Part shown: in pieces, positions 227 through 30,559 of the stretch
Layout: each line of letters starts with the position of its first letter
Numbering within the stretch: the first letter of the stretch is position 1
Assembly (NCBI GenBank): GCA_001782475.1
Contig: MFOT01000007.1
Location: 1 to 50,274 of the forward strand
Length of the DNA: 50,274 bases
Reading direction: 5' to 3'
Origin: Candidatus Levybacteria bacterium RIFCSPLOWO2_01_FULL_38_21
GTDB taxonomy: Bacteria > Patescibacteriota > Microgenomatia > Levybacterales > UBA12049
Notes under the pieces: generated by a model
Database searches by the model: none
Told to the model about the DNA's origin: nothing
Seen by the model: the letters and a program-made list of their open reading frames with translations, nothing else
Program-made: the position numbers and the translations under genes

Positions 227-419
227 AATCAACCAGGATTGGGAGAAACTAGGATTTTAATTATTATAATCACCGCATCTTGAAAAATTTGCATAATATG
301 GGACCGGATTATTTTGTAGAGCAGATTATACTATGGGTACGATCTATTTAAAAGAGGCAATTGGATTGTCGACTTCAATTACTTTCTCAACCAAGCGATC
401 GGACAACCTCTCTAAATAG

Positions 420-608
420 TTATTTATCTGTTCTTCTTAAAAGAGAGGACTTCAGTGGAGTTTTTTGTTCTTTTAACAACTTCTCCCTTCGTTCTAAAAG
501 AGAGGGCTTTTCAGGAATTACCCCTAACGATTCTTCTGGAAAAGGTCTTCTAGGAAATCTACCTCGTTCCGATTCTGATGGTCGTCTTTCTTCTTTTAAT
601 TCTGCCAC
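420..608 (-). CDS. Small hypothetical protein or fragment (VAELKEERRPSES...)
   Basis: 3' part of track ORF 420..728; GTG at 608 preceded by GGGGGTGA; no recognised motif. Confidence 0.25.
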   Translation of the reverse strand: MAELKEERRPSESERGRFPRRPFPEESLGVIPEKPSLLERREKLLKEQKTPLKSSLLRRTDK

Positions 609-609
609 T

Positions 610-777
610 TCACTCACCCCCTGAATTAAATTCTTCCCAACTTCGATGACCTGTTCTATCAATCGATTTGCGTACCCCGCCACGTGTGATCGTAAATCCC
701 GCAAACGTCTTACTTGCCTCGTCAACAAGCTTAGGGAGTTTATTTCTGAGCTCAGTTGAAGGAAATGTCGTATTCAT
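610..777 (-). pseudogene. Phd/YefM-like antitoxin N-terminus, 55 codons, probably chimeric; not in ORF track
   Basis: MNTTFPSTELRNKLPKLVDEASKTFAGFTITRGG resembles the antitoxin at 5235 (SISDARANLPDIVAKVNKNMNRVTITVNG); own promoter upstream. Confidence 0.55.
633..677 (-). pseudogene. GAPDH C-terminal remnant
   Basis: Reads GYANRLIEQVIEVGK versus GYCNRLVEEVLMVGN at the end of the intact gap. Confidence 0.55.
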
Positions 778-786
778 AACAAAACA

Positions 787-815
787 ATTGTGCAGAATTC
801 TGACGTGGTTGTCAA
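787..815 (-). promoter_or_regulatory. Sigma70-like promoter
   Basis: TTGACA-N17-CACAAT upstream of ATG 777. Confidence 0.5.
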
Positions 816-828
816 GGAAGAAAAGATT

Positions 829-3012
829 TTATGGGGCAGGGGATGGGGAGGGAGTGGGGTGGGTGCAGGTTATGCAATATGTATCTCCTGTTGCGTCTTT
901 TAGTACAGTTTGATTTTTAAGTTCTGTATTCGGATCTCCTTCTTTTGCCTGTTCTTGGGTGTCTTTATTAACAAAGACATCTTGATTTTGAATTAGAGCA
1001 TTAGCTTTTAATCCAGACTCTGTGCCTCTTATGAAATACTCAAAGCGAGTTTTGCAAGCGTTATCTTTTCCGGGAACAGAACCAGTGTCTGAGCATACAG
1101 CTTTTTGAATTATACTCAAAGGTCTCTGAAACGGCTGGGCAGGCTTTCCCTTTAAAAGATTTTCCATGATATCATGCCAGATTGGAGCAGCTCCGGTAAT
1201 TCCAGAAACTAAACCGCTCATTGGAGTATTGTCATTATTACCAACCCAAACAACTACAACATAGGAGGGTGCATATCCAATCGTCCAGTTATCCCTAAAG
1301 TCATTTGTTGTTCCTGTTTTGACAGCAACAGGTAAATTGCCGATTCTAAGAGGAGAGTTAGTTCCGAATTCCATAGCCCTTGCCTGATTGTCCGAAAGAA
1401 TATCCGAGATGATAAAGGCGACTCCCTCGGGCAAGATTTTTTTGCCGAATATTGGGGAAGGGGGAGGTTTATATTCTTCTAAAACTTTTCCCTTGCTATC
1501 TGTTACTTTTAAGATTGGATGAAGGGGTATTTTATATCCTCCATTTGCAAAAACTCCAAAAGCAGTTGCCATATCAACCATAGTTACCTCTCCTCCTCCA
1601 AGAGTTAATGAAAGTCCATATCTACTCGGATCATTAAATGTTGTTATGCCCATTGCTGAAGCGGTTGCAATCATTTTAGGTACCCCATTAAGCTTAAGCA
1701 TTTTAACAGCAGGAATATTTATAGAGTTTGCCAAAGCTTGTCTTACTTGTAAAACTCCATGAAATTTGCCATCGTAATTAACCGGGCAGTAGGGTGGGTG
1801 TCCAGGGTTTGGGAAACAAACCCTCCGATCTATAAAAGGTGTTGCAGCAGTATAGCCATTCAAAAGACCCACGGCATAGTTTATTGGTTTTATGGAAGAA
1901 CCCGGCTGTCTTAGAGCAATTGTTACGTTTACGTTCCCGTCATTTGCCATGTCAAAATAATCATGGCTTCCAACCATTGCTAAGATTTCTCCTGTCGCGG
2001 GATTAGTAACCAGAGCAGCTCCATTTGTTACTCTAGAATACTTAAGATTTGCAATCTCGGCGGAGACCGAAGCTTGAGCCATGCCTTGAATAGATAAATC
2101 AAGACTTGTTGTTACTTTTAAGCCTCCTTGTTCTACAGCCTTTTCCCCATATTTTTTAATAAGAAGATCCTTTACGTACAAGACAAAATGAGGAGCTTTA
2201 ATTGCATTAGATAAATTTCTATAATGAAGTTGTTCTTCTAAAGTTTTATCTAACCCCTTTTTTGTTATGTATTTTTCCTGATACATTTTCCGAAGTACCT
2301 CTTCCTGTCTTTTTTTTGCAAGTTCAGGGTGAGACCCAAAAGGCGAGTAGGTTGTAGGAGCTTCTGGGAGTGCTGCCAGAAGTGCACTTTCAGAAAGCGT
2401 TAAATCTTTTGCATGTTTTCCAAAATAAGTCTGGGAAGCTGCTTCAACTCCCCAAGCAGTGCCGCCGTATGGTGTTTGATTAAGATACATTTCTAAAATC
2501 TGGCTTTTTGAATAAAGGGACTCGGTTGCAAATGCCAGAAGAATTTCCTTAACTTTTCTCAAGATTGTTCTTTCCGGAGTCAAAAGACTGTTTTTTACCA
2601 GCTGTTGGGTAATGGTTGATCCTCCTTGAATTTGGTGACGGAGAGTAATTGAAATTACAGAACGGGCGATACCTCTTACATCTATGGGACCGTGCTGGTA
2701 AAAATCCTTATCCTCAATTGCAATAGTTGCCTCCTGCATGTATTTTGGGATTGATGAAAGCGGAATAAAAGTTTGATTTTTTTGCGCGTATATTGTGAAC
2801 AAGAGATTGCCGTTTCTATCAAATATTTGAGTCGATTGAGGAACGTTTGTACTTGCAAGTCTTGTTGGAGAAGGAAGGTCACGCAAAATATAGATATAAA
2901 AAATAATAAATAAGATTAAAAGAGGAATTAGTAAAATTGCGTATCTTTTTCTAAGTATTTTTTTACTAAGCTTTTTAGAAAATATTTTAACCCTAGAGGT
3001 CGTATTTTGCAT
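829..3012 (-). CDS. Class A penicillin-binding protein (PBP1A family, transglycosylase-transpeptidase)
   Basis: N-terminal TM; EDKDFYQH, GGSTITQQL, RKVKE; SSIK (SxxK), SIN, KTGT motifs. Confidence 0.95.
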   Translation of the reverse strand: MQNTTSRVKIFSKKLSKKILRKRYAILLIPLLILFIIFYIYILRDLPSPTRLASTNVPQSTQIFDRNGNLLFTIYAQKNQTFIPLSSIPKYMQEATIAIEDKDFYQHGPIDVRGIARSVISITLRHQIQGGSTITQQLVKNSLLTPERTILRKVKEILLAFATESLYSKSQILEMYLNQTPYGGTAWGVEAASQTYFGKHAKDLTLSESALLAALPEAPTTYSPFGSHPELAKKRQEEVLRKMYQEKYITKKGLDKTLEEQLHYRNLSNAIKAPHFVLYVKDLLIKKYGEKAVEQGGLKVTTSLDLSIQGMAQASVSAEIANLKYSRVTNGAALVTNPATGEILAMVGSHDYFDMANDGNVNVTIALRQPGSSIKPINYAVGLLNGYTAATPFIDRRVCFPNPGHPPYCPVNYDGKFHGVLQVRQALANSINIPAVKMLKLNGVPKMIATASAMGITTFNDPSRYGLSLTLGGGEVTMVDMATAFGVFANGGYKIPLHPILKVTDSKGKVLEEYKPPPSPIFGKKILPEGVAFIISDILSDNQARAMEFGTNSPLRIGNLPVAVKTGTTNDFRDNWTIGYAPSYVVVVWVGNNDNTPMSGLVSGITGAAPIWHDIMENLLKGKPAQPFQRPLSIIQKAVCSDTGSVPGKDNACKTRFEYFIRGTESGLKANALIQNQDVFVNKDTQEQAKEGDPNTELKNQTVLKDATGDTYCITCTHPTPSPSPAP

Positions 3013-3060
3013 AGCATATATGATACCATTTAACTGAAGGTTAAGACAATCTAGAAAAAT

Positions 3061-4086: not shown

Positions 4087-4090
4087 AGTA

Positions 4091-4122
4091 ATTGCTATAT
4101 TGTTTCATTGTTAAATTGTTAG
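4091..4122. repeat. Degenerate 8-mer tandem array x4
   Basis: attgctat attgtttc attgttaa attgttag; reverse complement of the array at 42510. Confidence 0.7.
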
Positions 4123-4125
4123 CAA

Positions 4126-5217
4126 ATGTATAAATTACCGGATTTGAAAACTGCTCAAGTAAAAGGTAAAAAAGTTTTCTTAAGAACAGATATAGACGTG
4201 CCCCTATCGGAGAATGGGCAGATTGCAGATGATACAAGATTAGGAGAAGGACTTGAAACTTTGAACTTTCTTCTTAAAAACGGCGCAACGGTTTTTATCG
4301 GTGGACATCTTGGTCGTCCGGATGGTCTCAAAAGAGATCTAAGTGTTAAGCCAGTGACGAAATGGTACGCGAAAAAATTCAGAATTCAGAATTCAGAATT
4401 CAGAGTTCAGAGCATTGGAGGGTTCGAAGGCTTTCAAATCTCAGATAAACTATTTCTTCTTGAGAATTTGAGGTTTGATCCGGGAGAAGAATCTAGTCCA
4501 ACGACCCGCTCAGGACAAGTTTTTGCTCAAAAGCTTGCAAGCCTCGCAGATATATATGTAAATGATGCTTTTGCCTCATCACATCGTGCGCATGCATCAA
4601 TCGTAGGAGTTGCGAAACTTTTACCCCATTTTGCCGGTTTTATGCTTAAAAAAGAGGTAGAAACTCTGTCGGCCCTTCTTAATAATCCAAAAAGACCGCT
4701 TGCTGTTATCATTGGTGGCGCAAAGATAGAAACCAAACTTCCCTTGGTTGAAAAGATGCATCAGATTGCAGATTATGTTTTAGTGGGAGGACTAATTGCA
4801 GAAGAGACAAAAGTGCTTTTAAAAGTCCAGCATGAAAAAGTAAATCCGCCAGCTGGCGGAAGAAAGTCAGCACTTCTTGTCGCAGATTTAAACAGCGAAG
4901 AAACAGATATAACCCCAAAAGATGCGGAAAATTTTTTACAGATAATAAATCTTGCAAAAACAATTGTTTGGAATGGGCCGGTTGGAAAAACCGAGGGAAA
5001 CGAAGAAAATTTGGAAATTGGCACTGCAAAACTTGCCCGCGGAATTATTGACGCCGGAGTTTATTCGGTTGTTGGAGGAGGGGATACAATTGCGTATCTT
5101 AAAAAAATAGGACTTTTAGATAAATTTTCCTTTGTATCATCAGGAGGAGGCGCAATGCTCGAATTCCTTTCAGGCGAAAAATTACCAGGGATAGAGGCCT
5201 TGACAAGTTGTACGTAA
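4126..5217 (+). CDS. pgk: Phosphoglycerate kinase
   Basis: HLGRP, LLENLRF, YVNDAF, HRAHAS, GGAK, WNGP, GGGDT, SGGGAMLEFLSG. Confidence 0.97.
   Translation: MYKLPDLKTAQVKGKKVFLRTDIDVPLSENGQIADDTRLGEGLETLNFLLKNGATVFIGGHLGRPDGLKRDLSVKPVTKWYAKKFRIQNSEFRVQSIGGFEGFQISDKLFLLENLRFDPGEESSPTTRSGQVFAQKLASLADIYVNDAFASSHRAHASIVGVAKLLPHFAGFMLKKEVETLSALLNNPKRPLAVIIGGAKIETKLPLVEKMHQIADYVLVGGLIAEETKVLLKVQHEKVNPPAGGRKSALLVADLNSEETDITPKDAENFLQIINLAKTIVWNGPVGKTEGNEENLEIGTAKLARGIIDAGVYSVVGGGDTIAYLKKIGLLDKFSFVSSGGGAMLEFLSGEKLPGIEALTSCT
4376..4410 (+). repeat. In-frame heptamer array (AATTCAG)x4+1 in pgk
   Basis: Encodes FRIQNSEFRVQ. Confidence 0.9.
4496..4519 (+). repeat. Family A palindromic element (degenerate) in pgk
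   Basis: gtccaacgacccgctcaggacaag, peptide SPTTRSGQ. Confidence 0.75.
4845..4860. repeat. 16-bp perfect palindrome in pgk
   Basis: tccgccagctggcgga, peptide NPPAGG. Confidence 0.75.
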
Positions 5218-5228
5218 TGTTGTACATT
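5200..5228 (+). promoter_or_regulatory. Promoter/operator of TA operon, overlapping pgk stop
   Basis: TTGACA-N17-TACATT; two TTGTAC sites resembling YefM/Phd-type operators; ATG 6 nt after -10. Confidence 0.7.
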
Positions 5229-5234
5229 TTAAAT

Positions 5235-5489
5235 ATGACAGATTTAATTTCTATATCAGATGCGCGGGCAAATTTGCCAGATATTGTGGCAAAAGTAAAT
5301 AAGAATATGAACAGAGTCACAATTACCGTGAACGGAAAGCCTAAAGCAACCCTCATAAGCGCTGAGGAGCTTGAGTCTCTAGAAGAGACTGCCGAAATTT
5401 TAGCAACACCTGGAGCAAAAGAAAGTATTTTAGAAGGTCTTAAAGAGGCAAAAAAAGGACAAGGTATTCCGCTTTCAGGGCTTAAATAA
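5235..5489 (+). CDS. Phd/YefM family antitoxin
   Basis: ISISDARANLPDIV...TITVNGKPKATLISAEELESLEETAEIL. Confidence 0.9.
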   Translation: MTDLISISDARANLPDIVAKVNKNMNRVTITVNGKPKATLISAEELESLEETAEILATPGAKESILEGLKEAKKGQGIPLSGLK

Positions 5490-5492
5490 AGC

Positions 5493-5741
5493 ATGCAGAT
5501 TATTGTTACTCCAAAAGCCGCGAAGGATTATAAACTTCTTCCGAAAACAGAACAAACAAAAATTAAGAGAAAATTAGAAATACTTGAGGAAAATCCGTAT
5601 ATAGGCAAAAAACTTTCCGCTGAGTTTTCAGAGTTAAGAGTTCTTAGGGCATGGCCATATAGAATTATTTATTATATAGACAATAAAAGAGGAAAAATAT
5701 TTATAGTAAATATTCATCATAGGCAAGGAGCTTATAAATAA
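5493..5741 (+). CDS. RelE/ParE family toxin
   Basis: 82 aa basic protein, NPYIGKKL...RVLRAWPYRIIY...HRQGAYK; follows antitoxin. Confidence 0.9.
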   Translation: MQIIVTPKAAKDYKLLPKTEQTKIKRKLEILEENPYIGKKLSAEFSELRVLRAWPYRIIYYIDNKRGKIFIVNIHHRQGAYK

Positions 5742-5744
5742 CGA

Positions 5745-5793
5745 GAGTTTAAGCAGAGAAAAACTCCCCGGCCTCCAAGCCCTCCTTAAATAA
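5745..5793 (+). pseudogene. Displaced pgk 3'-end remnant
   Basis: EF/LSREKLPGLQALLK* versus EFLSGEKLPGIEALTSCT* in intact pgk. Confidence 0.75.
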
Positions 5794-5794
5794 A

Positions 5795-7462
5795 TTACCA
5801 ACTCGTCCGAATATGTTTCATTGCGTAATCTAAATCTCCTGCGACTTTTTTACGGGGGTTGAAGATATTTTGAGGGTCGAAGATTTTTTTGGTTTCTTCA
5901 AAAAGTTCCACTATTTTTTCTCCGTACATTTGTTTAAGATACGGAGTTCTTATAAGTCCGTCATTATGCTCTCCGGTTATTGAGCCGTGATATTTAGCGA
6001 TAATCTCATAAACCTGGTCTGAAATTTGGGGAATTGCAGTTCTGACACTTGGGTTATTTATATCAACGAGCGGAATAATATGAAAATTCCCGTCACCCAC
6101 GTGTCCTGCAACTGTAAAAATAAACTCCGGATGCTTTTTAAGAATATCTGTTACTTTTGGTACTACTTCTGCAATATATTCAGGCTTTATAACAAAATCG
6201 TCAATAAAAGGAGCCGTATGTTTGTCACGGATTTTTTTGCGAAGCAGGTTAAAACTTTCGCGTCTTACAAGCCAGTATCTTTTTTCCTGATTTTCCAAAG
6301 CAGTTTGTGTTTGGGGATGAAGAGGTTTGAGTTTCTCTCGGAGTGTAGCCACTTTCTTCTTAACAATTTCTAAATCATCACTTGTGAAATCAACTTGGAG
6401 TACTAGCTTAGGCAAACTTCTGCCAGTAAACAGATCAAAGAATGCCGGAAGAAACGCAATTCCTGCCTCAATTGATCCCAAAAACCCAAGTTGTTTGGCA
6501 AATTCCGGAAAATATCTTAGGGCAAGTTTTAGGGTGTTATCATCATAAGATTCAAAACTTTCTGGCTCAAGCGGCAAAACCTCCTTGATAATTTCTCCAA
6601 GATGGGATATGTCATGAAGAAAAATAATTAACATATCGCGGTGCTGATGAATGGGTACGAGTTCCAGATCACCTTCGAGAAAGATTCCAAGAGTTCCTTG
6701 AGCGCCAACAAAAAGTTTTGTTAGGTCAAAAACCTGCCTGCCGGCAGGCAGGTTTTTTTCCCAAACATTCCAGAGAAAATATCCTGCGGAATTTTTGCTA
6801 ACTTTAGGCTTTGCCTTCTGTAGTAAATCGTAGTTATGGGTTATGAGTTCGTAGATTTTGCGGTAAATTTCCCCTTCGAAATCGATCTGCGCCATTTTTT
6901 GTTTAAGTTCTTTCTCTGAAAGCGGTTTTAATTCATATATATTTCCGTCTGAAAGAACTACTTTCATTCGTCTTACATAGTTTTCGGTTTTACCATATTG
7001 AAGAGATTTCTCTCCCCCCGTATTATTATTAAATATTCCTCCCATTGCGCAGAGCTCTCGAGATGCAGGGTAGGAGGGGAAAATTAAATTAGTTTTAAGA
7101 GTTTCTTTTTCAAAATCACGATAAAAAACACCCGGTTGGGTTGTAGCGATATTCCCGTTTACAACCGGCGTGTGATTAAAATATTTTCCAAATGCAACGA
7201 TAATAGACTCATTGATTGAGCCACCTCCCATGTCGGTTCCCGCCGCGCGGGCAGTAAGGGATAGGGTAGGTTTGTTCTTTTTATTATCATTAACAAATTT
7301 GACCAGCGCTTTTACATCTTCATCATCTTTTGGAAAGACAACAACTTGCGGTTTTACTTCAAAAAGAGAGGCATCATGGCTGTAGTCGGAAAGAGTCTTG
7401 TCGTCGTATAAAATATCGCCCTTTATCAAATGTCTGAGTTCTTCGATTAGTTTATCATCCAT
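5795..7462 (-). CDS. FAD-binding oxidoreductase (GlcD/D-lactate dehydrogenase-like)
   Basis: YSHDASLF, AAGTDMGG, GAQGTLG, GHVGDGNFH, GEHNDG, FDPQNIFNP. Confidence 0.9.
   Translation of the reverse strand: MDDKLIEELRHLIKGDILYDDKTLSDYSHDASLFEVKPQVVVFPKDDEDVKALVKFVNDNKKNKPTLSLTARAAGTDMGGGSINESIIVAFGKYFNHTPVVNGNIATTQPGVFYRDFEKETLKTNLIFPSYPASRELCAMGGIFNNNTGGEKSLQYGKTENYVRRMKVVLSDGNIYELKPLSEKELKQKMAQIDFEGEIYRKIYELITHNYDLLQKAKPKVSKNSAGYFLWNVWEKNLPAGRQVFDLTKLFVGAQGTLGIFLEGDLELVPIHQHRDMLIIFLHDISHLGEIIKEVLPLEPESFESYDDNTLKLALRYFPEFAKQLGFLGSIEAGIAFLPAFFDLFTGRSLPKLVLQVDFTSDDLEIVKKKVATLREKLKPLHPQTQTALENQEKRYWLVRRESFNLLRKKIRDKHTAPFIDDFVIKPEYIAEVVPKVTDILKKHPEFIFTVAGHVGDGNFHIIPLVDINNPSVRTAIPQISDQVYEIIAKYHGSITGEHNDGLIRTPYLKQMYGEKIVELFEETKKIFDPQNIFNPRKKVAGDLDYAMKHIRTSW
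6728..6757. repeat. Family B 30-bp perfect palindrome, in frame
   Basis: aaaaacctgcctgccggcaggcaggttttt, peptide KNLPAGRQVF. Confidence 0.9.
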
Positions 7463-10947: not shown

Positions 10948-11024
10948 AATAAGTTATAATTTTATTATGGTTCTAGGATAAGTTTAGTCTATTTACCAAG
11001 TTTTGACAAATATTTGTTTGCCTC

Positions 11025-11053
11025 TTGCTGCAACTTTTTTTCTCATCTATACT
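11025..11053 (+). promoter_or_regulatory. Promoter in front of gap 5' remnant
   Basis: TTGCTG-N17-TATACT-N6-ATG(11060). Confidence 0.55.
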
Positions 11054-11059
11054 AATTTT

Positions 11060-11113
11060 ATGACAAGAGTTGCGATAAACGGATACGGGAGAATAGGACG
11101 AGGGAACGGGTGA
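11060..11113 (+). pseudogene. Displaced gap 5'-end remnant (MTRVAINGYGRIGRGNG*)
   Basis: First 14 codons are 35/42 nt and 12/14 aa identical to the intact gap start at 12559. Confidence 0.9.
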
Positions 11114-11455
11114 ACGGGGACTGAACGTGAACGGGGACGGTCCTACGACAGATTGATAGAGCAATCCAAATTAGGCATGTTTTTTTAGTTTTTTTTGTTG
11201 AGAAGATCTTTCGGCAACGAGGCTATCTCTCCAAGCAAAAAGAAAACTACATTAAAATTAGCTTGTCACAATAAGATTTCTCAGGACCGTCCCCAAGGTA
11301 CCCAAGGTACCAAGGTACACAAGGTACAAAGTATTACGCTTGCTCGTAATAGCATAGTTTAAGAACAGTAGATCTCTAACACAGTAACACAGGGTCGGAC
11401 CCTCAGTTACCCTCAGTTAGGATCAAAAGAGTTACGACGAGGTCGGACCTCGTAA
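11104..11455. repeat. Cluster of REP-like repeats
   Basis: Stuttered tgaacggggac; 12-bp inverted pair ggggacggtcct (11133-11144)/aggaccgtcccc (11283-11294); caaggtac x4; palindromes agggtcggaccct and acgaggtcggacctcgt. Confidence 0.75.
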
Positions 11456-11507
11456 TAGAAACTGAGTTGAGTGATTCCTAGGGTGTGGAGCAGAAGGATT
11501 GGGAGAT

Positions 11508-12422: not shown

Positions 12423-12558
12423 GATGAAATTATAAAATAATTTTTTTGATTGTCAAGTATTTTTGTGCTGGTCTCCTAGATAGTCGTAATCAAGTCTTTA
12501 AGACAATATTCCAAACAAACTTATTGAATTGTTAAGTAAAAACTTGTATTCTTTAAAT

Positions 12559-18914: not shown

Positions 18915-21377
18915 ATGAAACTTGATGGAATAAGGAATAAAGTATTTTTGGATAGATATGCTTTAAAGGGAGTTAAGGGAGAGTTGCTTGAGAAATCTCC
19001 TGAGGAAATGTGGAAAAGAGTAGCAAGGGGTATTGCCGAAAATGAAAAGAAAATTAAAAGAGCTTATTGGAAACAAAAATTTTATAGTGTAATGAAAGAC
19101 TTCAAGTTTGTTCCCGGCGGAAGAATCCTCTCCGGTGCGGGAACAGATTATGAGGTGACCTATTTCAACTGCTTTGTTATTCCATCTCCAAAAGATTCAA
19201 GAGAGGGAATTTTAGAATCCTTAAAACAGCTGGTAGAGATTCAATCAAGATCAGGGGGAGTTGGTCTTAATCTTTCATCTCTAAGACCAAGGGGTGCCCG
19301 TGTTAAAAAAGTAAATGGAACATCCTCCGGTCCTGTAACTTGGGCAGGATTATTTTCATACGCAACCCATGATGTTGTCCAGCAAGGGGGAACAAGACGA
19401 GGAGCAACTATGCTTATGCTTTGGGACTGGCATCCGGATATTGAAGAATTTATAACTGTAAAACAGGACCTCTCCAAAATAAACGGAGCAAATCTTTCCG
19501 TTTGTATCTCCGATAGTTTTATGGAAGCGGTTAAAAAAGACAGCGATTGGGATTTGGTTTATCCGGACTTAGATGATCCTAAATACGATGCAAAATGGAA
19601 CGGAGAAATAGATGAGTGGAAAAAACTAGGCGGAAAAATAAAAGTTTATAAAATTGTAAAAGCCCGATATCTTTGGAATCTAATCTGCGAAGCTGCCTGG
19701 AGAAGTGCTGAGCCTGGGCTTCATTTTCTTCAAAGGTCAAATAAAAGAAGCAACACCTGGTATTTTGAAAAACTAATCGCCACAAATCCCTGCGGAGAAC
19801 AACCCCTTGGTGCTTGGGCTGTTTGTAATCTCGGTGCAATGAATTTGGCGGCCTATGTTAAAAATGAAAAATTCGATTATGAGAGCTTTTCGGAAGATGT
19901 AAAAGTTGCAATAAGATTCTTAGACAACGTTATAGATAAAACTTATCACTTCTTTAAACAGAACGAAAAAGTAGCCAAAGACATCAGAAGAACCGGACTT
20001 GGCATTATGGGCTTGGGAGATGCGCTTATTAAAATGAAAGTACGCTACGGATCAGATGAATCTCTTAAGATTATAGATAAAATTTTTGAGACTTTAAGAA
20101 ATAGCGCCTATGATGCATCTTCTGATATTGCAAAAGAAAAAGGAGCATTCCCAAAGTTCAATAAAGCAAAGTATTTGGAAGGTTACCATATTAAAGAGTT
20201 GACACCAGAAATTCAAAAAAAGATTGCAAAGCAGGGCATAAGAAATGCTGTTCTTTTAACTATTGCACCAACTGGAACAACTTCGCTTCTTTCGGGAGTG
20301 ACATCGGGGATTGAGCCGGTTTATGAATTCACCTTTATAAGGCGGGATAGAACCGGAGAGCACATTATGTATCATCCGTTTTTTGAAGAGTGGAAAAAAG
20401 AGAACCCTTCGGCAGGCTCAGGGCAAGTCCCGGATAGGCCTGATTATTTTGTCTGCGCAAATGATCTGACTCCACCTGAGCATGCGCAAGTTCAGGCAGT
20501 TGCGCAAAAATATGTAGATGCATCTATTTCAAAAACAGTGAATGCTCCAAACTCTCACACAGTCGAGGATGTAAAAACACTTTATATGGCAGCTTATGAC
20601 TTAGGACTTAAAGGGGTAACTTATATGAGAGATGGAAGTCGAGAGGGAGTTCTTTCAAGGGTTGAAGATAAAAAAGATCCTTCGGCAAGCTCAGGACAAG
20701 AGAAAATTACCAAACCGGTTATTCCACGCCCCATGCAGCTTGAAGGAGTGACTTATCAAATTCAAACACCTGTTGGAAAAACATACATTACTATTAATCA
20801 TAACGAGAACAAAGAGCCGTTTGAGGTTTTTATTACTATTGGAAAGTCAGGCTCTGATGTTGCGGCAATGGCAGATGCATTAGGCAGAATTATTTCCGTA
20901 AACCTTCGTCTCTTAGGAGGACTTTCTCCAAGAGAAAAAATAAGGGAGATTGTAGCCCAGCTTGCAGGAATTGGCGGAGCAAGAAGTGTCGGGTTTGGAA
21001 AAGATAAGGTGAGATCTTTACCAGACGGTGTTGCAAAAATACTTGCAATGCATTTTGGTTTCGCCGTAAATGGACAGGTTGAGGATAAAAATACTCAGGC
21101 CAATGGACAAGTCCAGCCCCAAGTATTAGCAAATGGGAACGGACCCTTTAATGGAAAAGCAGAAATTAAAACAGAAAACGAAAAAACCCCTGGGGTTGTT
21201 GAGATGCAACAGCTGGCACTGGTTGGAAAAGGAAGCGGACTTATGGCAGAAGACAGTAGTCCGTATGAGATAGCTGGAACAAGCCTTTATGATCTTTGTC
21301 CTGAATGCGGGGCGGGGAGTCTGGCATATGAGGAAGGATGCAGAAAATGCTACAGTTGTGGTTATTCAGAGTGCTAA
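18915..21377 (+). CDS. nrdJ: Adenosylcobalamin-dependent (class II) ribonucleotide reductase with C-terminal TSCPD/zinc-ribbon region
   Basis: FVPGGR, NCFV, QGGTRRGA, TNPCGEQ, CNLG, APTGT, ISKTVN, CPECG...EGC..C..CGYSEC; no beta subunit nearby. Confidence 0.93.
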   Translation: MKLDGIRNKVFLDRYALKGVKGELLEKSPEEMWKRVARGIAENEKKIKRAYWKQKFYSVMKDFKFVPGGRILSGAGTDYEVTYFNCFVIPSPKDSREGILESLKQLVEIQSRSGGVGLNLSSLRPRGARVKKVNGTSSGPVTWAGLFSYATHDVVQQGGTRRGATMLMLWDWHPDIEEFITVKQDLSKINGANLSVCISDSFMEAVKKDSDWDLVYPDLDDPKYDAKWNGEIDEWKKLGGKIKVYKIVKARYLWNLICEAAWRSAEPGLHFLQRSNKRSNTWYFEKLIATNPCGEQPLGAWAVCNLGAMNLAAYVKNEKFDYESFSEDVKVAIRFLDNVIDKTYHFFKQNEKVAKDIRRTGLGIMGLGDALIKMKVRYGSDESLKIIDKIFETLRNSAYDASSDIAKEKGAFPKFNKAKYLEGYHIKELTPEIQKKIAKQGIRNAVLLTIAPTGTTSLLSGVTSGIEPVYEFTFIRRDRTGEHIMYHPFFEEWKKENPSAGSGQVPDRPDYFVCANDLTPPEHAQVQAVAQKYVDASISKTVNAPNSHTVEDVKTLYMAAYDLGLKGVTYMRDGSREGVLSRVEDKKDPSASSGQEKITKPVIPRPMQLEGVTYQIQTPVGKTYITINHNENKEPFEVFITIGKSGSDVAAMADALGRIISVNLRLLGGLSPREKIREIVAQLAGIGGARSVGFGKDKVRSLPDGVAKILAMHFGFAVNGQVEDKNTQANGQVQPQVLANGNGPFNGKAEIKTENEKTPGVVEMQQLALVGKGSGLMAEDSSPYEIAGTSLYDLCPECGAGSLAYEEGCRKCYSCGYSEC
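20404..20427 (+). repeat. Family A element in nrdJ, copy 1
   Basis: acccttcggcaggctcagggcaag, peptide NPSAGSGQ. Confidence 0.9.
20677..20700 (+). repeat. Family A element in nrdJ, copy 2
   Basis: atccttcggcaagctcaggacaag, peptide DPSASSGQ. Confidence 0.9.
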
Positions 21378-26151: not shown

Positions 26152-26201
26152 TTCTTCCTTGCCCTCGGAGTTCTTCTTTGCTAAAATTAGCATGATTAGA
26201 A

Positions 26202-26274
26202 GGAGCTGTAGTTCACCGGTCAGAACGCGATCCTTATAAGATCGATGTAGATGGTTCGACTCCATCCAGCTCCA
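26202..26274 (+). tRNA. tRNA-Ile (anticodon UAU)
   Basis: Acceptor GGAGCTG/CAGCTCC-A; anticodon arm cgatc-ctTATaa-gatcg; T arm gatgg-ttcgact-ccatc; no encoded CCA. Confidence 0.88.
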
Positions 26275-26290
26275 CATGGGAAAAAATGGT

Positions 26291-26992
26291 ATGAAGAGTA
26301 AGGTGGTTTTGGCAGTTGGGGCACACCCCGATGATATAGAATTTGGAGCTTCTGGAACCATAGCAAAATGGGCGCAAGAGGGAGCAGAGTGTTATTATCT
26401 AATCTGTACAGACGGAAGCAGGGGATCCACAGATCCAAAGATGACTCATAAAAGACTTGTTCAGGTTAGAAGAAAGGAGCAGGAGGGAGCAGCAAAAATT
26501 TTGGGCCTTAAAAAGGTCTATTTCTTAGACTATACAGATACTCTTTTAACTGCAGACTACGCTCTAAGACGCGACATAGCAAAAATTATAAAAATCATAA
26601 AACCGGATATAGTGGTTACCATGGACCCAACTTTTTACTACTCCGAACAGTTTAATTTTATAAATCATACGGATCATAGAGCCGCAGCCCTGGCTACTAT
26701 GGATGCATGTTACCCCTTGGCTCGGGACAGATTAACATTTCCTGAACATGAAAAAGAGGGCTTAACGCCACATCGCGTCGAGGAGATTTGGTTTATTGGT
26801 TTTGATAAAACTAATTTGCTGATAGATATTACAGACACTTTTGTTAAAAAAATTGAAGCTATTACTATGCACAAGAGTCAATTTGAAAACATGGAGCATG
26901 TTATAAAAAGAGTAGAGGAGAGAGCAAGATATTTCGGAATTACAAAGGGTTGTAAATACGCAGAAAACTTCGTTCGGGTTGAGCTTTTTTAA
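26291..26992 (+). CDS. PIG-L/LmbE family deacetylase
   Basis: AHPDD, TDGSRG, RRKEQ..A, HTDH, HKSQ. Confidence 0.9.
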   Translation: MKSKVVLAVGAHPDDIEFGASGTIAKWAQEGAECYYLICTDGSRGSTDPKMTHKRLVQVRRKEQEGAAKILGLKKVYFLDYTDTLLTADYALRRDIAKIIKIIKPDIVVTMDPTFYYSEQFNFINHTDHRAAALATMDACYPLARDRLTFPEHEKEGLTPHRVEEIWFIGFDKTNLLIDITDTFVKKIEAITMHKSQFENMEHVIKRVEERARYFGITKGCKYAENFVRVELF

Positions 26993-27849
26993 AGATCTGA
27001 AAGAGTTGATGTTTCTTTGCCTCTTTCCCCAACATAATTAAGATATCTTTCGGTTGTAGAAAGTCTTTTATGTCCTAAAATTTTAGAAAGTAAAACCAAA
27101 GAAGCACCCTGTTTTAAGTGATGGGCAACAAATGTGTGTCTTAAATCATTTACCCTTGCATCTTTTACTTCTGCCAATCGGAAATACCTTTCCATAGAAG
27201 TTCTGATATTTCTTACCAAAAATGGTCTCCCAGATTTTGTGATAAAAAGATGACTGTCCTTTGTCTTTGGTCTTATTTCCAGATATTTTTGGAGCGCCTC
27301 CTGCGCCCTTTTATTAAGCGGAATTTCTCTTTCTTCGTGTTTTTCGTATGCTGCTATGTGCAAAGAATCCTTTTTACTATCGGAAACCCTGAGGTTCGCC
27401 AGTTCTCCAATTCTTATCCCTGTTTGAAGTAAAAGTTCAATGATTGCAAACATTCTGGGGTCGTTTCTTGCTGCGTCTCGCAAGGCTCTATATTCGGTTG
27501 GCGTGAGTATTCTGGGTGGTGCAAGCTGATATCTTGGGTGGGCGACTAAAAGAGAAGGGTCATCGGTAACATATTCGTTGATTTTAAGAAATCTATAAAA
27601 AGTTCGAGTAGAATTAATCTTTCGTGAAATTGATTTTGGGGTGTAACCGTCTTTCTGCATTTTTGCCAAAAATGCCTCTATGTCCTCTTTGGTTACTTCG
27701 TGAATTTGATTTTTCGCAACCTCTTCCAAAAACGAAATAAGTTGCTCTATATCTTTGCCATATGCTACAATTGTAGAGTTCGAATGCTTTTTGTTTTTAA
27801 GAAAATTTTTAAACTCTTGGTGGGCATCCCGGAGCTTTATGGTTTTCAT
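26989..27849 (-). CDS. XerC/XerD-like tyrosine recombinase
   Basis: SAM-like N-domain; TGIRIGEL, NDLRHTF (N in place of first H), LGH..LSTTERY. Confidence 0.88.
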   Translation of the reverse strand: MKTIKLRDAHQEFKNFLKNKKHSNSTIVAYGKDIEQLISFLEEVAKNQIHEVTKEDIEAFLAKMQKDGYTPKSISRKINSTRTFYRFLKINEYVTDDPSLLVAHPRYQLAPPRILTPTEYRALRDAARNDPRMFAIIELLLQTGIRIGELANLRVSDSKKDSLHIAAYEKHEEREIPLNKRAQEALQKYLEIRPKTKDSHLFITKSGRPFLVRNIRTSMERYFRLAEVKDARVNDLRHTFVAHHLKQGASLVLLSKILGHKRLSTTERYLNYVGERGKETSTLSDL

Positions 27850-27895
27850 ACTTCGATTTCACTCAGTATGATCCTGAGCAGAGTCGAAGGATCAT
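27847..27895. repeat. Pair of family A elements ending in the recombinase ATG
   Basis: Minus strand atgatccttcgactctgctcaggat-catact-gagtgaaatcga-agtATG. Confidence 0.8.
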
Positions 27896-27963
27896 ACAAA
27901 AGTGATGTCCTATAATATCAATAAAATTAACTTTAGTCAAGATGGGAATATTGAATACTTAGT

Positions 27964-28305
27964 ATGAAAAAAATCTTATTTATTGTTGCTATTGTAGCTT
28001 CAATTTTTATTATTAATAGCCTTGTTCGGTCTATCTACGATTTATGGAAAAAGCAAGATTTAATAACTCAAGCCCAAAAAGAACTAGAGAGAGAAAAACA
28101 GGAAAATTATGACCTAAAGTCTAAATTATCCAAGGCTCAAAATAATCAATTCGTAGAAGAGGAGGCTAGAAATAAATTATTGCTTGTAAAACCGGGCGAG
28201 GAATCGGTGATTATTCCTCAAGATTTACTTTCATCCCAAAGTTCGCAAAGAAAAAATATTGATACGCACCCAAACTTTAGAAAATGGTGGGATTTATTCT
28301 TCTGA
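27964..28305 (+). CDS. Septum formation initiator (FtsB/DivIC-like)
   Basis: N-terminal TM, coiled coil, FVEEEARNKLLLVKPGE; ends PNFRKWWDLFF. Confidence 0.82.
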   Translation: MKKILFIVAIVASIFIINSLVRSIYDLWKKQDLITQAQKELEREKQENYDLKSKLSKAQNNQFVEEEARNKLLLVKPGEESVIIPQDLLSSQSSQRKNIDTHPNFRKWWDLFF

Positions 28306-28347
28306 TTTAATGGTTAACTCAAAATGATTTATAATAAACGTAGATCA

Positions 28348-28508
28348 ATGAGACTTCCATATAGCGGAAACGCAGTTATTCCAAGAGAAAAGTTAACAAA
28401 ATATTTATTTTCAGAAACACATGCGACAGGAAAATTTAAAGCAAGGTTTTTCAGAAATCTCGGTTTTGACGAACCCAATGTCGATTTATTACCATATATC
28501 CTGTATAA
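28348..28508 (+). pseudogene. DUF6883-like putative toxin, internally deleted and frameshifted
   Basis: N-terminus MRLPYSGNAVIPREKLTKYL...H..GKFKARFF..LGF joined out of frame to C-terminal RFITIYPV*. Confidence 0.6.
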
Positions 28509-28531
28509 TAAGAAAGTTAGGAGATAATATT

Positions 28532-28762
28532 ATGTTTGAAGAATTAGACACTGTAGTTCTTGCCCACGATATTGAAAAAGATGGTCTTAGAAGAGGCGAT
28601 GTGGGGACTATAGTTCATATTTACAAAAATGGAAAAATATTAGAAGTTGAGTTTGTGAATGCAGAGGGGAAAACAGTAGCTTTACTTACTCTTGATTCAT
28701 CCGAAGTCCGTGGCATAAGGAAAAATGATATGCTGCATGTTAGAGGGTTTGCAACTGTTTAA
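28532..28762 (+). CDS. DUF4926 domain protein (putative antitoxin)
   Basis: MFEELDTVVL..D....GL.RGDVGTIVH.Y....LEVEF....G.TVA. Confidence 0.85.
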   Translation: MFEELDTVVLAHDIEKDGLRRGDVGTIVHIYKNGKILEVEFVNAEGKTVALLTLDSSEVRGIRKNDMLHVRGFATV

Positions 28763-28778
28763 TCTTCTTAAAGGATCT

Positions 28779-28823
28779 AATACTCGATCAAATTGACAGA
28801 AATGGTGGGATTTATTCTTCTAG
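28779..28823 (+). pseudogene. ftsB-like 3'-end remnant, copy 2
   Basis: NTRSN*QKWWDLFF*; 28800-28821 identical to 28282-28303. Confidence 0.9.
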
Positions 28824-28882
28824 CCTGCAATGAGCCTTCCAAAACCACAAGTATTTGTCCCTGAAATTGATATAATATTTCC

Positions 28883-29218
28883 ATGAGCTGGGACATTATT
28901 ACTTTTGAAACACAACGAGGAGAAAAACCCGTAGACGAGTTTATTAAAAGACAACAGCCTCAAGCCAGGTCAAAAATAGTCCACAACATCAGACTTCTGC
29001 GACAATACGGAAATATGCTCGGTATGCCTCATTCAAGAATGTTAGTTGGAGGATTATACGAATTGCGAATTAGAGGCAAGGAAGAATTACGAATCTTTTA
29101 TTGTTTCAAAAAGAGAACTATTTATTTACTCCATGTATTTAAGAAACAAACACAGAAGACACGAGTAAAAGAACTAAATCTGGCAATAAATAGAATGAAG
29201 GAATTGACAACAGCATAA
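28883..29218 (+). CDS. RelE/HigB-like toxin (Gp49-like)
   Basis: PVDEFI, LGMPHSR, LYELRIRG..ELRIFY, LLHVFKKQTQKT. Confidence 0.88.
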   Translation: MSWDIITFETQRGEKPVDEFIKRQQPQARSKIVHNIRLLRQYGNMLGMPHSRMLVGGLYELRIRGKEELRIFYCFKKRTIYLLHVFKKQTQKTRVKELNLAINRMKELTTA

Positions 29219-29242
29219 CGTTTATGTTATAAAATAGTTACT

Positions 29243-29515
29243 ATGAGTAAGTGGGAAGATTTAGAAAAAGAGTTGTTATCGGACCCTGAAACAAGAAAGG
29301 AGTTTAATAAGCTTGCACCTCGCTATGCGGTGATTTCAGAATTTATTAAAGCTCGTCTAAAAAAGGGGATGACTCAGAAAGACGTCGCTGATAAAATTGG
29401 CACCAAGCAATCTGCTGTTGCCAGACTTGAGGCAGGTAACAGCAACCCAACAATTGGCTTCTTGGAGAAAATTGCCTCTGTGCTTGGAACAAGGCTAACG
29501 ATTCATCTGCGGTAA
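29243..29515 (+). CDS. HigA-like XRE helix-turn-helix antitoxin
   Basis: RLKKGMTQKDVA.KIGTKQSAVARLEAG..NPT. Confidence 0.9.
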   Translation: MSKWEDLEKELLSDPETRKEFNKLAPRYAVISEFIKARLKKGMTQKDVADKIGTKQSAVARLEAGNSNPTIGFLEKIASVLGTRLTIHLR

Positions 29516-29516
29516 A

Positions 29517-29552
29517 AGTAACTGGAGAAAGTGGTGGGACATATCTTTCTAG
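29517..29552 (+). pseudogene. ftsB-like 3'-end remnant, copy 3
   Basis: SNWRKWWDISF*, codon-for-codon with PNFRKWWDLFF*. Confidence 0.8.
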
Positions 29553-29562
29553 AAGAATGAAA

Positions 29563-29823
29563 TTACATGTGATTTGTCTTTATTTCTCTTATTATTTTTC
29601 TTAATCCCATCCAACTCATCGCCAATGAGGATCTTAAATCACTTACGGGATGATGAGGATGATCAGCCGTTGCTCGGACGCCATCGTTAATGTCTTCTAA
29701 TTCACCATAATATTTACTATTTTGAGCAACAGGACCTGCCATATCAGTCTGTTGCCCCCAGCTTCCAGTTTGTGCAATTTCCAAATATTTATTTAAATAA
29801 AATCTTCTTTTTTCAGGATTCAT
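29563..29823 (-). CDS. Hypothetical protein, 86 aa (start moved to ATG 29823)
   Basis: MNPEKRRFYLNKY...; upstream extension of track ORF runs through repeat and tRNA debris. Confidence 0.5.
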   Translation of the reverse strand: MNPEKRRFYLNKYLEIAQTGSWGQQTDMAGPVAQNSKYYGELEDINDGVRATADHPHHPVSDLRSSLAMSWMGLRKIIREIKTNHM

Positions 29824-29837
29824 GCTATGGTTGTATC

Positions 29838-29910
29838 GGTACCAGGGGTGGGGATCCCCGCCTGCAACCTCCTGAAGCGACAGCTGATGGTGGGCAGGGA
29901 ACCCACGACC
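29838..29910 (-). pseudogene. tRNA 3'-half remnant interrupted in the T-loop by a long family B-like palindrome
   Basis: Minus strand ggtc-gtggg-ttc[cctgccc...gcaggcggg]gatc-cccac-ccctggtacc. Confidence 0.5.
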
Positions 29911-29938
29911 GCAAAGACTCTCTCCTATCAAAGCCTTG

Positions 29939-30010
29939 TGCCAACGGCAGGATTCGAACCTGCGACCCGACGCTTATGAAACGTCTGCTCTGCCCCTGAG
30001 CTACGTTGGC
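29939..30010 (-). tRNA. tRNA with CAU anticodon (probably elongator Met)
   Basis: GCCAACG/CGTTGGC-A; gacgt-ttCATaa-gcgtc; gcagg-ttcgaat-cctgc. Confidence 0.9.
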
Positions 30011-30068
30011 TCAGCTTATATTTTAACAGTTGGACAGATTGAGGTCAAATTGGTATAATAAACCTACA

Positions 30069-30137
30069 CGCGGGGTAGTGTACAGTGCACATGAGGCTCA
30101 TAATCTCATAGGCTAGGCGCAACTCCTAGCCCCGCAA
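30069..30137 (+). tRNA. Initiator-like tRNA-Met (CAU), atypical
   Basis: CGCGGGG/CCCCGCA-A with C1:A72 mismatch; tgagg-ctCATaa-tctca; ctagg-cgcaact-cctag; TATAAT at 30054. Confidence 0.75.
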
Positions 30138-30223
30138 CCGATTCGACGCGCCTTTCGCTTCTCTCAAGGCTTGCTCACGGCAAGCTCTTGCGCGGCGAAT
30201 TGGTGCTGAACCTGCCGAAGCAC
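30138..30223. repeat. Two family A elements (long-loop forward, short reverse) upstream of GIY-YIG gene
   Basis: ccgattcgac[25 nt]gctcacggcaag; gtgctgaacctgccgaagcac. Confidence 0.7.
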
Positions 30224-30270
30224 ACTTCAGGATGCCCAACGGACAACATTGTTTTTGGTGAAATGAGTTT

Positions 30271-30516
30271 ATGTGGTTTGTATATATTCTTCTCTGCGAA
30301 AATGGAAATCTTTATACAGGTAGTTCAAATAACCCTCAGAAGAGATTTATATATCATAGAGACGGAAAGGGTGGAAGATATACCCGTTCGCATAAACCAA
30401 TAAAACTACTTTACACCGAGCAACTTCAAACCAAAACAGATGCTTTGAAAAGGGAAAGTCAGATTAAAGGTTGGAGTAGGGAAAAGAAGATAAAAATTTT
30501 GAAACTAGAAATTTGA
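30271..30516 (+). CDS. Stand-alone GIY-YIG nuclease (UPF0213-like)
   Basis: FVYIL.C.NGNLYTG...R...H..GKGGRYT, ALKRE.QIKGWSR.KK. Confidence 0.92.
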   Translation: MWFVYILLCENGNLYTGSSNNPQKRFIYHRDGKGGRYTRSHKPIKLLYTEQLQTKTDALKRESQIKGWSREKKIKILKLEI

Positions 30517-30519
30517 AAC

Positions 30520-30559
30520 TTCCAATCCCTGCCCTTCGACAGGCTCAGGGCAAGCAACA
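30520..30559 (+). repeat. Canonical family A element inside a probable tRNA-fMet 3' remnant
   Basis: ttccaatccctgccc[ttcgacaggctcagggcaa]gcaaca. Confidence 0.7.

Follow-up and report, generated by a model that had tools for sequence, protein, structure and literature searches.

How do short accessory cassettes come to lie between the working end of a core gene and a second, dead copy of that same end? The question is raised by a stretch of 50,274 nucleotides (nt) from Candidatus Levybacteria bacterium RIFCSPLOWO2_01_FULL_38_21 (contig MFOT01000007.1), called the window here, which is the entire contig C7 of an assembly of 787,844 bases in 28 contigs that is 98% complete. The original prediction, made from the letters of the window, had proposed that small cassettes enter at core-gene termini and replace them, and had named four such places, the 3' end of pgk, the 5' end of gap, the 3' end of an ftsB-like gene and the 3' end of a tRNA-fMet, together with orphan gap 3' ends. 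Our analysis confirmed the geometry, a cassette between a live terminus and a displaced copy of it, at several core genes; the duplicates at pgk, gap and the ftsB-like gene stand far above chance and the one at the tRNA does not.

Ultra-small, host-dependent bacteria are thought to have few routes of gene gain, and their toxin-antitoxin and orphan genes usually lie without visible mobility. In the following, G000 denotes the genome of the window, G001-G003 are genomes of the same genus, other G numbers are further relatives and L numbers are metagenome contigs. Cargo names marked 'by eye' have no family search behind them.

Live and displaced gene ends

When each terminus of pgk, gap and ftsB from the window was scanned against the whole genome in six frames, the dead copy that had been claimed was in every case the best match apart from the gene itself. 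The dead pgk tail scored 48 (runner-up 39), the dead gap head 66 (next 41) and the two dead ftsB tails 51 and 50 (runner-up 39). The dead and live heads of gap are 84% identical over 44 nt, with their starts 1,499 nt apart. At ftsB, where three copies are found, 28282-28303 and 28800-28821 agree in 22 of 22 nt and 29529-29550 is 77% identical, each copy having its own stop codon (Table 1). The supposed duplicate of the tRNA-fMet 3' end (30121-30139 and 30520-30559) did not hold, as 553, 108 and 500 of 1000 shuffles did as well as or better than the alignments of the tRNA, its 3' half and its last 19 nt, respectively, to 30140-30700, and 30533-30554 is a copy of a repeated 22-nt motif. Among the two orphan gap 3' ends, remnant A stood with a score of 52 in the scan with the gap tail (next scores 48 and 39), and remnant B was found to be weak; it is closer to orphan A than to the live gap tail.

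Table 1. Coordinates of the features in the window (nt).
Feature	Position	Strand	Basis or remark
pgk (phosphoglycerate kinase)	4126-5217	+	Pfam PGK 302.7 bits
Live, imported pgk tail, reads EFLSGEKLPGIEALTSCT*	5161-5217	+	read from sequence
Cargo 1: Phd/YefM antitoxin open reading frame (ORF) 5208-5489, ParE toxin 5493-5741	5208-5741	+	Pfam 66.9, 41.1 bits
Displaced native pgk tail, ESLSREKLPGLQALLK*	5745-5793	+	abuts 3' end of convergent FAD-oxidase gene
FAD-oxidase gene, convergent to pgk	5795-7462	-	
Native gap promoter region and displaced head (11060-11102, 14 codons + 1 nt, MTRVAINGYGRIGR, then homology lost)	11017-11102	+	
Cargo 2: 165-nt inverted-repeat element (~11130-11294), orphan ORF of 304 amino acids (aa) (11508-12422, -), imported gap promoter	11103-12558		
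gap (type I GAPDH), live head 12559-12601	12559-13653	+	TIGR01534 371 bits; Pfam
ftsB/DivIC-like gene; live tail copy 1 at 28282-28305 (KWWDLFF*)	27964-28305	+	Pfam DivIC 48 bits
Cassette A: truncated DUF6883 ORF (28324-28527), DUF4926 ORF (28421-28762)	28306-28799	+	Pfam
ftsB tail copy 2 (KWWDLFF*)	28800-28823	+	
Cassette B: Gp49/HigB-like toxin (28883-29218), HTH antitoxin (29243-29515)	28824-29528	+	Pfam 80.5, 59.1 bits
ftsB tail copy 3 (KWWDISF*)	29529-29552	+	
Orphan gap 3'-end remnant A, GYANRLIEQVIEVGKNL, no gap gene adjoining	630-695	-	score 52, best non-self match in genome
Weak orphan gap 3'-end-like remnant B, RLSDRLVEKVIEVDNPIASFK*	350-425	-	score 42
Core Xer-type tyrosine recombinase, divergent from ftsB, outside cassettes	26989-27849	-	XerC/XerD models best
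Atypical tRNA-Met(CAT) 30069-30139, GIY-YIG ORF 30271-30516, 22-nt motif 30533-30554	30069-30554	+	not a terminus duplication

Across the genome, the terminal 22 residues at each end of all 706 ORFs with 100 aa or more were compared in six frames with flanks of 5 kb on either side, and as a control the identical peptides were compared with random 10-kb stretches (4077 scans). Matches are more frequent near gene ends than in the controls, a score of at least 50 being reached in 22 of 1412 real scans and in 4 of the 4077 controls. About half of these 22 near matches are neighbouring paralogues; the short remnants that lie outside genes number 11. At the same threshold, a second scan, seeded and covering the entire genome, gave 17 matches within 5 kb and 128 elsewhere, the far rate predicting about 1.6 near ones. 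The 11 remnant sites in 788 kb lie at pgk, gap, ftsB, a comM-like gene, pheT, AAA_28, PMT_2, ftsZ, secA, nusG and lysS (names taken from Pfam or family searches), the hosts outside the window including an AAA_28 NTPase, a PMT_2 glycosyltransferase and a class-I lysS. The remnants are short (7-42 codons) and extend exactly to the old stop or start. The spacing from live to dead copy ranges from 71 nt at nusG, where 38 nt separate the two tails, up to 2,319 nt, and the cargo measures 0.04-2.3 kb across the G000 loci.

The site pattern is thus genome-wide in G000, and the same gene ends are reused in relatives with different cargo. For pgk, gap, ftsB and comM the relatives' loci carry flanks of only about 1.5 kb, so that this comparison would not reveal larger elements at the sites of pgk, gap and ftsB. 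A blind scan of 1075 termini in 145 loci of relatives gave 8 matches of at least 42, of which 7 are real remnants. Dead pgk tails were found in 3 of 29 loci (G001, G002 and G027). Those of G001 and G002 are orthologous to that of G000, and because the ancestral tail-to-tail junction with the FAD-oxidase gene stays with the dead tail in all three genomes, the dead tail is taken to be the native one. The Phd/ParE insertion is common to G000 and G001; in G002 a HicA/HicB-like pair (by eye) lies on the other strand between the live tail and the shared dead tail, and in G027, which belongs to another family, the cargo is a Fic gene with a dead tail of its own. At gap, the promoter and head of G001-G003 align to 11017-11102 and none of them aligns upstream of the live head, from which it is concluded that here, too, the dead copy is native. 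One of 29 relatives' loci, that of G014, contains a Phd-like/PIN-like pair (by eye) between dead and live heads. Its break falls at the same place as in G000 (nt 43-48, i.e. 14 codons plus 1-5 nt), so that about the same nucleotide has been used in two genera with unrelated cargo.

The ORF of 304 aa in the gap cargo has no Pfam, NCBIfam or PADLOC family, no relative in the genome contigs and only sub-threshold Atlas matches; it is absent from G001-G003 and remains an orphan.

Dead coding tails of ftsB were found in none of the 29 relatives' loci with their short flanks. The DUF6883/DUF4926 cassette, in contrast, also follows ftsB in G015, a member of another genus, where its DNA matches in 246 of 289 positions (85%) versus 240 of 325 for ftsB itself. 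In G015 the flanks of the cassette are two copies of a box of about 65 nt that normally follows ftsB, and a partial copy of the box found after ftsB in G001 and G015 lies 3' of tail copy 2 in G000. The arrays that had been foreseen do occur, with two cassettes at ftsB in G000 and two to three dead ftsZ tails in relatives. Their proposed likeness to integrons did not survive as far as a link to the neighbouring recombinase is concerned: this recombinase is a core Xer, orthologous (64-92% identity) to proteins in 33 of 40 relatives, which adjoins ftsB in all 29 loci fetched, none of them with a dead coding tail. On the integron-integrase model TIGR02249 it reaches 65 bits against a cut-off of 265, and an integron at ftsB was rejected on the grounds that this Xer is that of the order and not an IntI, and that attC-like folding is lacking, the z-scores being +0.4 for ftsB tail 2, 0.0 for tail 3, -0.6/-0.7 for the dead pgk tail and +0.9 for the dead gap head. 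That 11 unrelated gene termini are used would also argue against a single dif-type site, as exploited by integrative mobile elements exploiting Xer (IMEX). A role of the dead tails as terminators or structured sites was likewise dismissed, as no folding signal exists apart from a modest hairpin at the ftsZ arm (z -2.0). A match of the ftsB tail in a viral contig lies inside an ORF of the opposite strand and was set aside as a chance match.

Which of the two copies is native can be told at pgk and gap. Among 12 live/dead pairs, 135 nt differences fall as 38/19/78 on codon positions 1, 2 and 3, and at the 3' ends the dead copy stays in frame to a stop at the homologous place in 8 of 9 pairs, the PMT_2 copy running one codon further. 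The amino-acid similarity of the pairs sums to 802, as against 440 +- 31 for random mutation at equal divergence, a value reached in 0 of 5000 simulations, although this excess is somewhat inflated by the choice of the pairs by protein similarity. In the nusG pair 9 nt differences cause no amino-acid change and in the comM pair 17 cause three, patterns which seem hard to explain except by selection on both copies. The excess at third positions and the kept frames therefore indicate that both copies were once working ends in separate lineages and that one of each pair was imported, so that what is seen is terminus replacement by imported DNA and not local duplication.

Cargo and the integrases beside the ftsZ gene end

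The cargo, as predicted, consists mostly of toxin-antitoxin pairs and orphans, and none of the cargo proteins in the window carries a recombinase domain, which bears out the claim that neither integrase nor transposase is included. In all, 41 cargo proteins were compared with Pfam and gave no integrase, resolvase or rve (DDE) domain, and one weak Y1_Tnp match and one LAGLIDADG_1 match were obtained. Two pairs, PhdYeFM with ParE and Gp49 with HTH_3, are above the cut-off (bit scores in Table 1) and by family membership would constitute type II toxin-antitoxin modules; the secA cargo has a HicA of 65.4 bits with a HicB-like partner below the cut-off. As in cis-mobilisable elements (CIMEs), terminus repeats thus flank cargo at conserved genes, and recombination genes are absent from the 41 cargo proteins. 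Conjugation genes were not seen in the course of this work, which included no search aimed at relaxase, coupling-protein or type IV secretion system genes. No repeats surround the recombinase on contig C24 of G000, and viral contigs scanned for the gap head and the comM head contained neither.

At ftsZ, however, the repeats do adjoin integrases. Among the 29 loci of relatives, 6 have dead ftsZ tails, and two of these 6 have a pair of them. Of the metagenome loci, such tails are present in 3 of the 10 with an FtsZ identity of 70% or more, as against none of the 66 with a lower identity. The break points fall into two classes, at about -14 and about -9 codons from the stop. The cargo varies from genome to genome and comprises NYN, DUF7718, a metallo-beta-lactamase-fold protein, orphans and a protein of 741 aa with a LAGLIDADG match; within the host genus, the arms are conserved and the cargo between them differs. 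The DUF5678-like (by eye)/aspartyl-protease-like pair at the ftsZ site of G023 resembles the DUF5678/aspartyl-protease-like pair at the PMT_2 site of G000.

On a viral contig of 34.8 kb lie two isolated copies of the ftsZ tail, directly oriented and with 5.9 kb between them, and a Phage_integrase gene lies on each side of the upstream tail, at distances of about 270 nt and about 370 nt. The arrangement would represent a tandem of two integrase elements with ftsZ tails as boundaries, and the distal tail shares its arm with the dead ftsZ tail of G000. In G011, G018, G006 and the metagenome contig L174, homologues of these integrases follow the ftsZ stop at a distance of about 165-220 nt, and in G007 one lies beside an orphan ftsZ tail. 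The 7 further homologues all have 101-121 bits on PF00589. A tyrosine-integrase family thus sits at ftsZ tails, and our reading is that the ftsZ gene end serves as its attachment site.

Two further features of the ftsZ neighbourhood were noted. Directly past the ftsZ stop of G000 (C20:11429-11540), G002, G015, G028 and L151 lies a conserved promoter-like box with a GC-rich hairpin and a T run, which may represent a small RNA or else the leader of the NYN gene frequently found next. In L156 (9350-12000), a 66-nt unit that combines a GC-rich arm with an ftsZ tail lies on either side of the 2.5-kb segment encoding the 741-aa protein (LAGLIDADG_1, 24.4 bits), the first unit directly following the live ftsZ stop.

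Routes by which the cassettes may have entered

We consider it somewhat probable that the agent is a set of site-specific tyrosine integrases, belonging to integrative elements that are phage-like or smaller and have their attachment sites in gene termini. The small cassettes would, on this view, be satellites of such elements or derivatives that lack the integrase. The crossover of the incoming DNA would fall within the terminal 7-42 codons of a conserved gene, at either end, and the gene would receive the version of the terminus that this DNA carries, for gap including a promoter. The gene itself would remain unbroken, and its native terminus would persist as a dead copy beyond the cargo. 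The cassettes of 0.04-2.3 kb would then be comparable to the streptococcal CIMEs and microCIMEs, toxin-antitoxin addiction would retain them in place, and they might be moved or stacked whenever an integrase-bearing relative enters the same site. At ftsZ, successive entries would stack and integrase-less segments persist between the tail copies. An integrase-free route is now less likely because a tyrosine-integrase family adjoins the same kind of tails at ftsZ, and of the two routes left open by the original prediction, host-encoded or trans-acting, the ftsZ integrases therefore make the trans-acting one plausible, by way of the integrases of related elements and not of a host pathway. We infer that the insertions of the window, at pgk, gap and ftsB, may have come about by the same integrase route, and that integrase-bearing elements would be the source of the small cassettes or would mobilise them.

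Several observations weigh against the integrase reading. G000 has only three tyrosine and one serine recombinase gene for 11 different sites, and a homologue of the ftsZ-type integrases was not found in it at E<=1e-10. No integrase was found at or near the pgk, gap, ftsB and comM sites; with two recombinase queries, tblastn at E<1e-8 gave hits in 0 of 29, 29 and 29 loci of pgk, gap and comM with flanks of about 1.5 kb (Xer/ftsB loci outside the listing). In G011 and G018 a second ftsZ tail was not found within the 6 kb available beyond the integrase, and the scan of G000 found no terminus duplicates 5-60 kb apart, so that elements of intermediate size are not in evidence. At AAA_28/lepA, a tail of 128 nt with an identical core of 55 nt is accompanied by a dead head of lepA, and the pgk insertion of G002 likewise has a dead FAD-oxidase tail in addition to the dead pgk tail; an attachment site needs no such two-sided homology. 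One and the same DUF6883-DUF4926 cassette is flanked by two types of repeat, coding tails in G000 and the ~65-nt box in G015. The packing is tight, with one toxin-antitoxin operon flush between the repeats, which random decay does not predict. Finally, between genomes the dead tails and their arms agree more closely than the 4-fold degenerate sites of adjacent genes do (ftsZ 78/99 versus 0.63 and 81/97 versus 0.69; pgk 38/51 versus 0.55), an excess with p ~0.001-0.003 by normal approximation, and such conserved tails and arms would not fit the simple decay of larger elements. Flush packing, two-sided homology, variable flanking repeats and conserved dead tails together keep a homology-driven route alive as a minority possibility.

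Such a route would consist of integrase-free, homology-armed cassettes, with the gene's end on one side of the cargo and a second copy of it on the other, that arrive as linear DNA by natural transformation and are incorporated, into any genome possessing the gene, by one RecA crossover in the gene body and a short one in the tail; in a variant, a small circle inserts by a single Campbell-type crossover. The dead tail would act as a working portable arm. Among cultured Saccharibacteria, natural transformation has reportedly been observed. We regard this as a serious candidate, though an unlikely one. G000 encodes ComEC, DprA, RecA and a ComM-like protein, none of the 41 cargo proteins has an integrase domain, and the youngest pairs still contain identical runs (22 nt at ftsB, 55 nt at AAA_28 and about 80 nt with one mismatch at the gap site of G014). 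The two-sided duplications with homology on both sides of an identical core, the two flank types of the DUF6883-DUF4926 cassette, the likeness of dead tails beyond that of 4-fold sites and the conserved ftsZ arms around differing cargo would all be expected of it, and a precedent exists in the exchange of 3' ends by environmental cassettes at tpsA/tpsC of Neisseria, as part of the source describes it (PMC3848433). However, integrases sit exactly at the ftsZ tails, and the identity within several pairs has by now fallen too low for homologous recombination (pgk 50% over 42 nt, lysS 57%). The gap break at the same nucleotide in two genera is what a fixed crossover site predicts, and the presence of dead ftsZ tails, among the loci compared, only in the clade with at least 70% FtsZ identity points to a lineage-specific agent. 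It is a stronger version of the same idea, and to us a rather doubtful one, that the cassettes form a self-propagating integrase-free system whose dead termini are selected as portable arms, usable in any genome with the gene irrespective of what follows it, the integrase phages merely sharing the hot spots. Selection of the arms would explain both the conservation of dead tails above synonymous sites and the swapping of cargo between arms.

If, on the other hand, the cassettes were one-off scars of homology-facilitated illegitimate recombination, in which foreign DNA finds its anchor in the conserved gene and is joined illegitimately within the terminal codons of the recipient, immobile and with dead tails that have no role, a foreign live tail and a native dead tail would be expected as well. 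The competence genes are present, and the process is documented in naturally competent bacteria, as far as the portion of the source considered here goes (PMC3240628). We nevertheless hold this to be improbable. Random junctions should also leave long fragments, but only short remnants reaching the exact stop or start exist; the break points recur in independent lineages (at gap, and in the two classes at ftsZ), the two-sided duplications require that the junction was already present in the donor, and neither arrays nor dead tails conserved above the synonymous level agree with it. Local duplication at insertion, as a long target-site duplication, or a chimeric assembly of strain variants appears extremely improbable. 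The copies do form direct repeats around the insertion and the assembly is metagenomic, but the third-position excess and kept frames speak of divergence under selection in separate lineages, and the same architecture is present in independently assembled relatives (pgk in G001 and G002, ftsZ in G002 and L151). Sequencing runs containing this genome come from groundwater and soil, which, like its small size and gene content, suggests a member of the Patescibacteria/CPR. Of the sampled 31-mers of 26900-30700, 90-94% were recovered in contigs from three runs, each of a different study and one of them possibly the source sample itself.

Small repeats, known systems and implications

A number of features in and around the window stand apart from the duplicated termini. 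The tRNA at 30069-30139 was called by ARAGORN only and missed by Rfam even at E<=1; it is one of two CAT tRNAs among the 46 tRNAs of the genome and has an initiator-like CGCGGGG/CCCCGCA acceptor stem with atypical D and T arms. The ORF at 30271-30516 was considered as a candidate free-standing homing endonuclease; its GIY-YIG domain reaches 70.5 bits, and no duplicated or interrupted tRNA end was found beside it. A tRNA-Ile with the anticodon TAT is located at 26202-26275, and C24:28837-29045 contains two tandem tRNA-Leu(CAA) genes, 42 nt apart. An open-ended ORF of 74 aa without annotation lies at the start of the window's first 830 nt. It is followed by both orphan gap 3' ends, which are on the minus strand and close downstream of the PBP1A gene. 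As a matter of speculation, an inversion with a break at the gap tail would account for the position of these ends.

The 22-nt GC-rich CCTTCGRCARGCTCAGGRCAAG-like motif occurs in 31 copies genome-wide, 23 of them within ORFs, all on the coding strand and in frame, where it reads e.g. PSASSGQG in gap and secA. In the window it is found at 12997-13018 (gap), 20406-20427 and 20679-20700 (both in an ORF of 820 aa), 30533-30554, 42437, 42959 and 45277; elsewhere it fills the 38-nt gap between the live and dead tails of nusG and interrupts the dead ftsZ tail of L151. It has the look of a very small mobile insertion tolerated within coding regions, and it is reminiscent of the Rickettsia palindromic elements. 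A FRIQNSEFRVQ-type peptide lies in frame in unrelated proteins, namely pgk (4351-4423), the N-terminus of C26:7428-9167 and C24:83320-83392; the pgk of G001 has a similar insert, and this may be a second in-frame repeat family.

The element of about 165 nt in the gap cargo has a second copy at C2:21107-21273, with inverted GGGGACGGTCC/GGACCGTCCCC ends and a strong fold (z -4.2), and single ends are found on C3, C9, C18, C20:13167 and C24. It resembles a miniature inverted-repeat transposable element (MITE), each end being followed by 2-4 short tandem repeats that differ by copy. As a part of the cassettes the GGACCGTCCCC element was rejected, since it lies inside the cargo at gap, beside the dead head, outside it at ftsZ (39 nt past the dead tail) and is absent elsewhere; it is probably a separate small repeat. 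Relatives of Y1_Tnp (IS200-like) are present in at least 8 copies or fragments (C1:12438, C2:27870, C10:14163, C12:6991, C20:4467, C24:35, C24:4827 and C28:14098), several of them at contig ends; the C28 copy has 27 bits in Pfam and the others are related to it by terminal peptides. One lies in the pheT cargo, but the others are situated among core genes without terminus duplicates, so that no link of these genes to the cassettes could be established.

The replacement of a gene end has parallels in several known systems. The prophage e14 in icd and the SXT/R391 elements at the prfC 5' end are large, have their own integrase and use a single site per genome. The sites described here are like them in that the element brings a replacement terminus (in the 5' case with a promoter), the gene keeps its function and a dead fragment remains behind, the gap 5' end matching the logic of prfC. 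Chromosomal integrons likewise stack compact single-operon cassettes, many of them toxin-antitoxin, between short repeats downstream of a fixed point; here, however, neither IntI nor attC-like folding is found, the cassettes have their own promoters and many loci are used. In polymorphic-toxin loci, the orphans of Rhs and contact-dependent inhibition (CDI) systems present a comparable displacement of 3' ends.

The following comparisons rest on parts of the papers cited. In Streptococcus salivarius, the 3' ends of rpsI, fda and rpmG harbour CIMEs of 1.2-13 kb and gene-less microCIMEs of 130-220 bp in tandem with integrative and conjugative elements (ICEs) or integrative and mobilisable elements (IMEs), and for ICESt3-type elements the ebfC 5' end is a further site (PMC7563491). 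The cassettes share with these the lack of an integrase, attachment-site repeats at the ends of housekeeping genes, a size from gene-less (the nusG tails being only 38 nt apart) to a few kb (PMC7563491) and the tandem arrangement with integrase elements, here in the viral contig with its ftsZ tails. Compared with the streptococcal elements in the portions covered, they differ in occupying 11 gene ends in a genome of 0.79 Mb with cargo that is mostly a single toxin-antitoxin operon, in having cognate integrases only for ftsZ and none in G000, and in that the repeats are diverged coding tails, some with two-sided homology. The tycheposons of Prochlorococcus carry their own tyrosine recombinase and often replication genes, use seven tRNA targets and are several kb or longer (10.1101/2020.12.28.424599). 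Common to both are a streamlined genome, repeated entry at the same site with older elements pushed inward, and partial target copies with degraded elements (10.1101/2020.12.28.424599), whereas protein-gene termini and recombinase-free cassettes are used here and the sole claim linked to a tRNA failed. At tpsA/tpsC, a new 3' end and a companion gene enter at a conserved stretch and the old end is orphaned downstream, with uptake as a possible route, as here (PMC3848433); there, toxin domains with immunity genes are exchanged, as opposed to equivalent housekeeping ends with unrelated cargo. A literature search on Patescibacteria found no description of terminus duplicates around small cassettes, although supplements, which lay outside the search, may hold island boundaries; PMC12455944 and PMC13617665, in the parts covered, describe none.

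Our findings provide a concrete anatomy of how accessory cassettes enter essential genes at their ends, leaving the gene restored and a scar that can be dated. About one terminus-replacement site occurs per 70 kb, and the sites recur across an order. Dead termini can be used as markers of insertion hot spots and of empty sites in metagenomes. The tyrosine-integrase family tied to the ftsZ 3' end offers an experimentally testable attachment site in a lineage with few genetic tools. Should the cassettes instead move by homology arms, they would represent a new way for selfish genes to spread via transformation.

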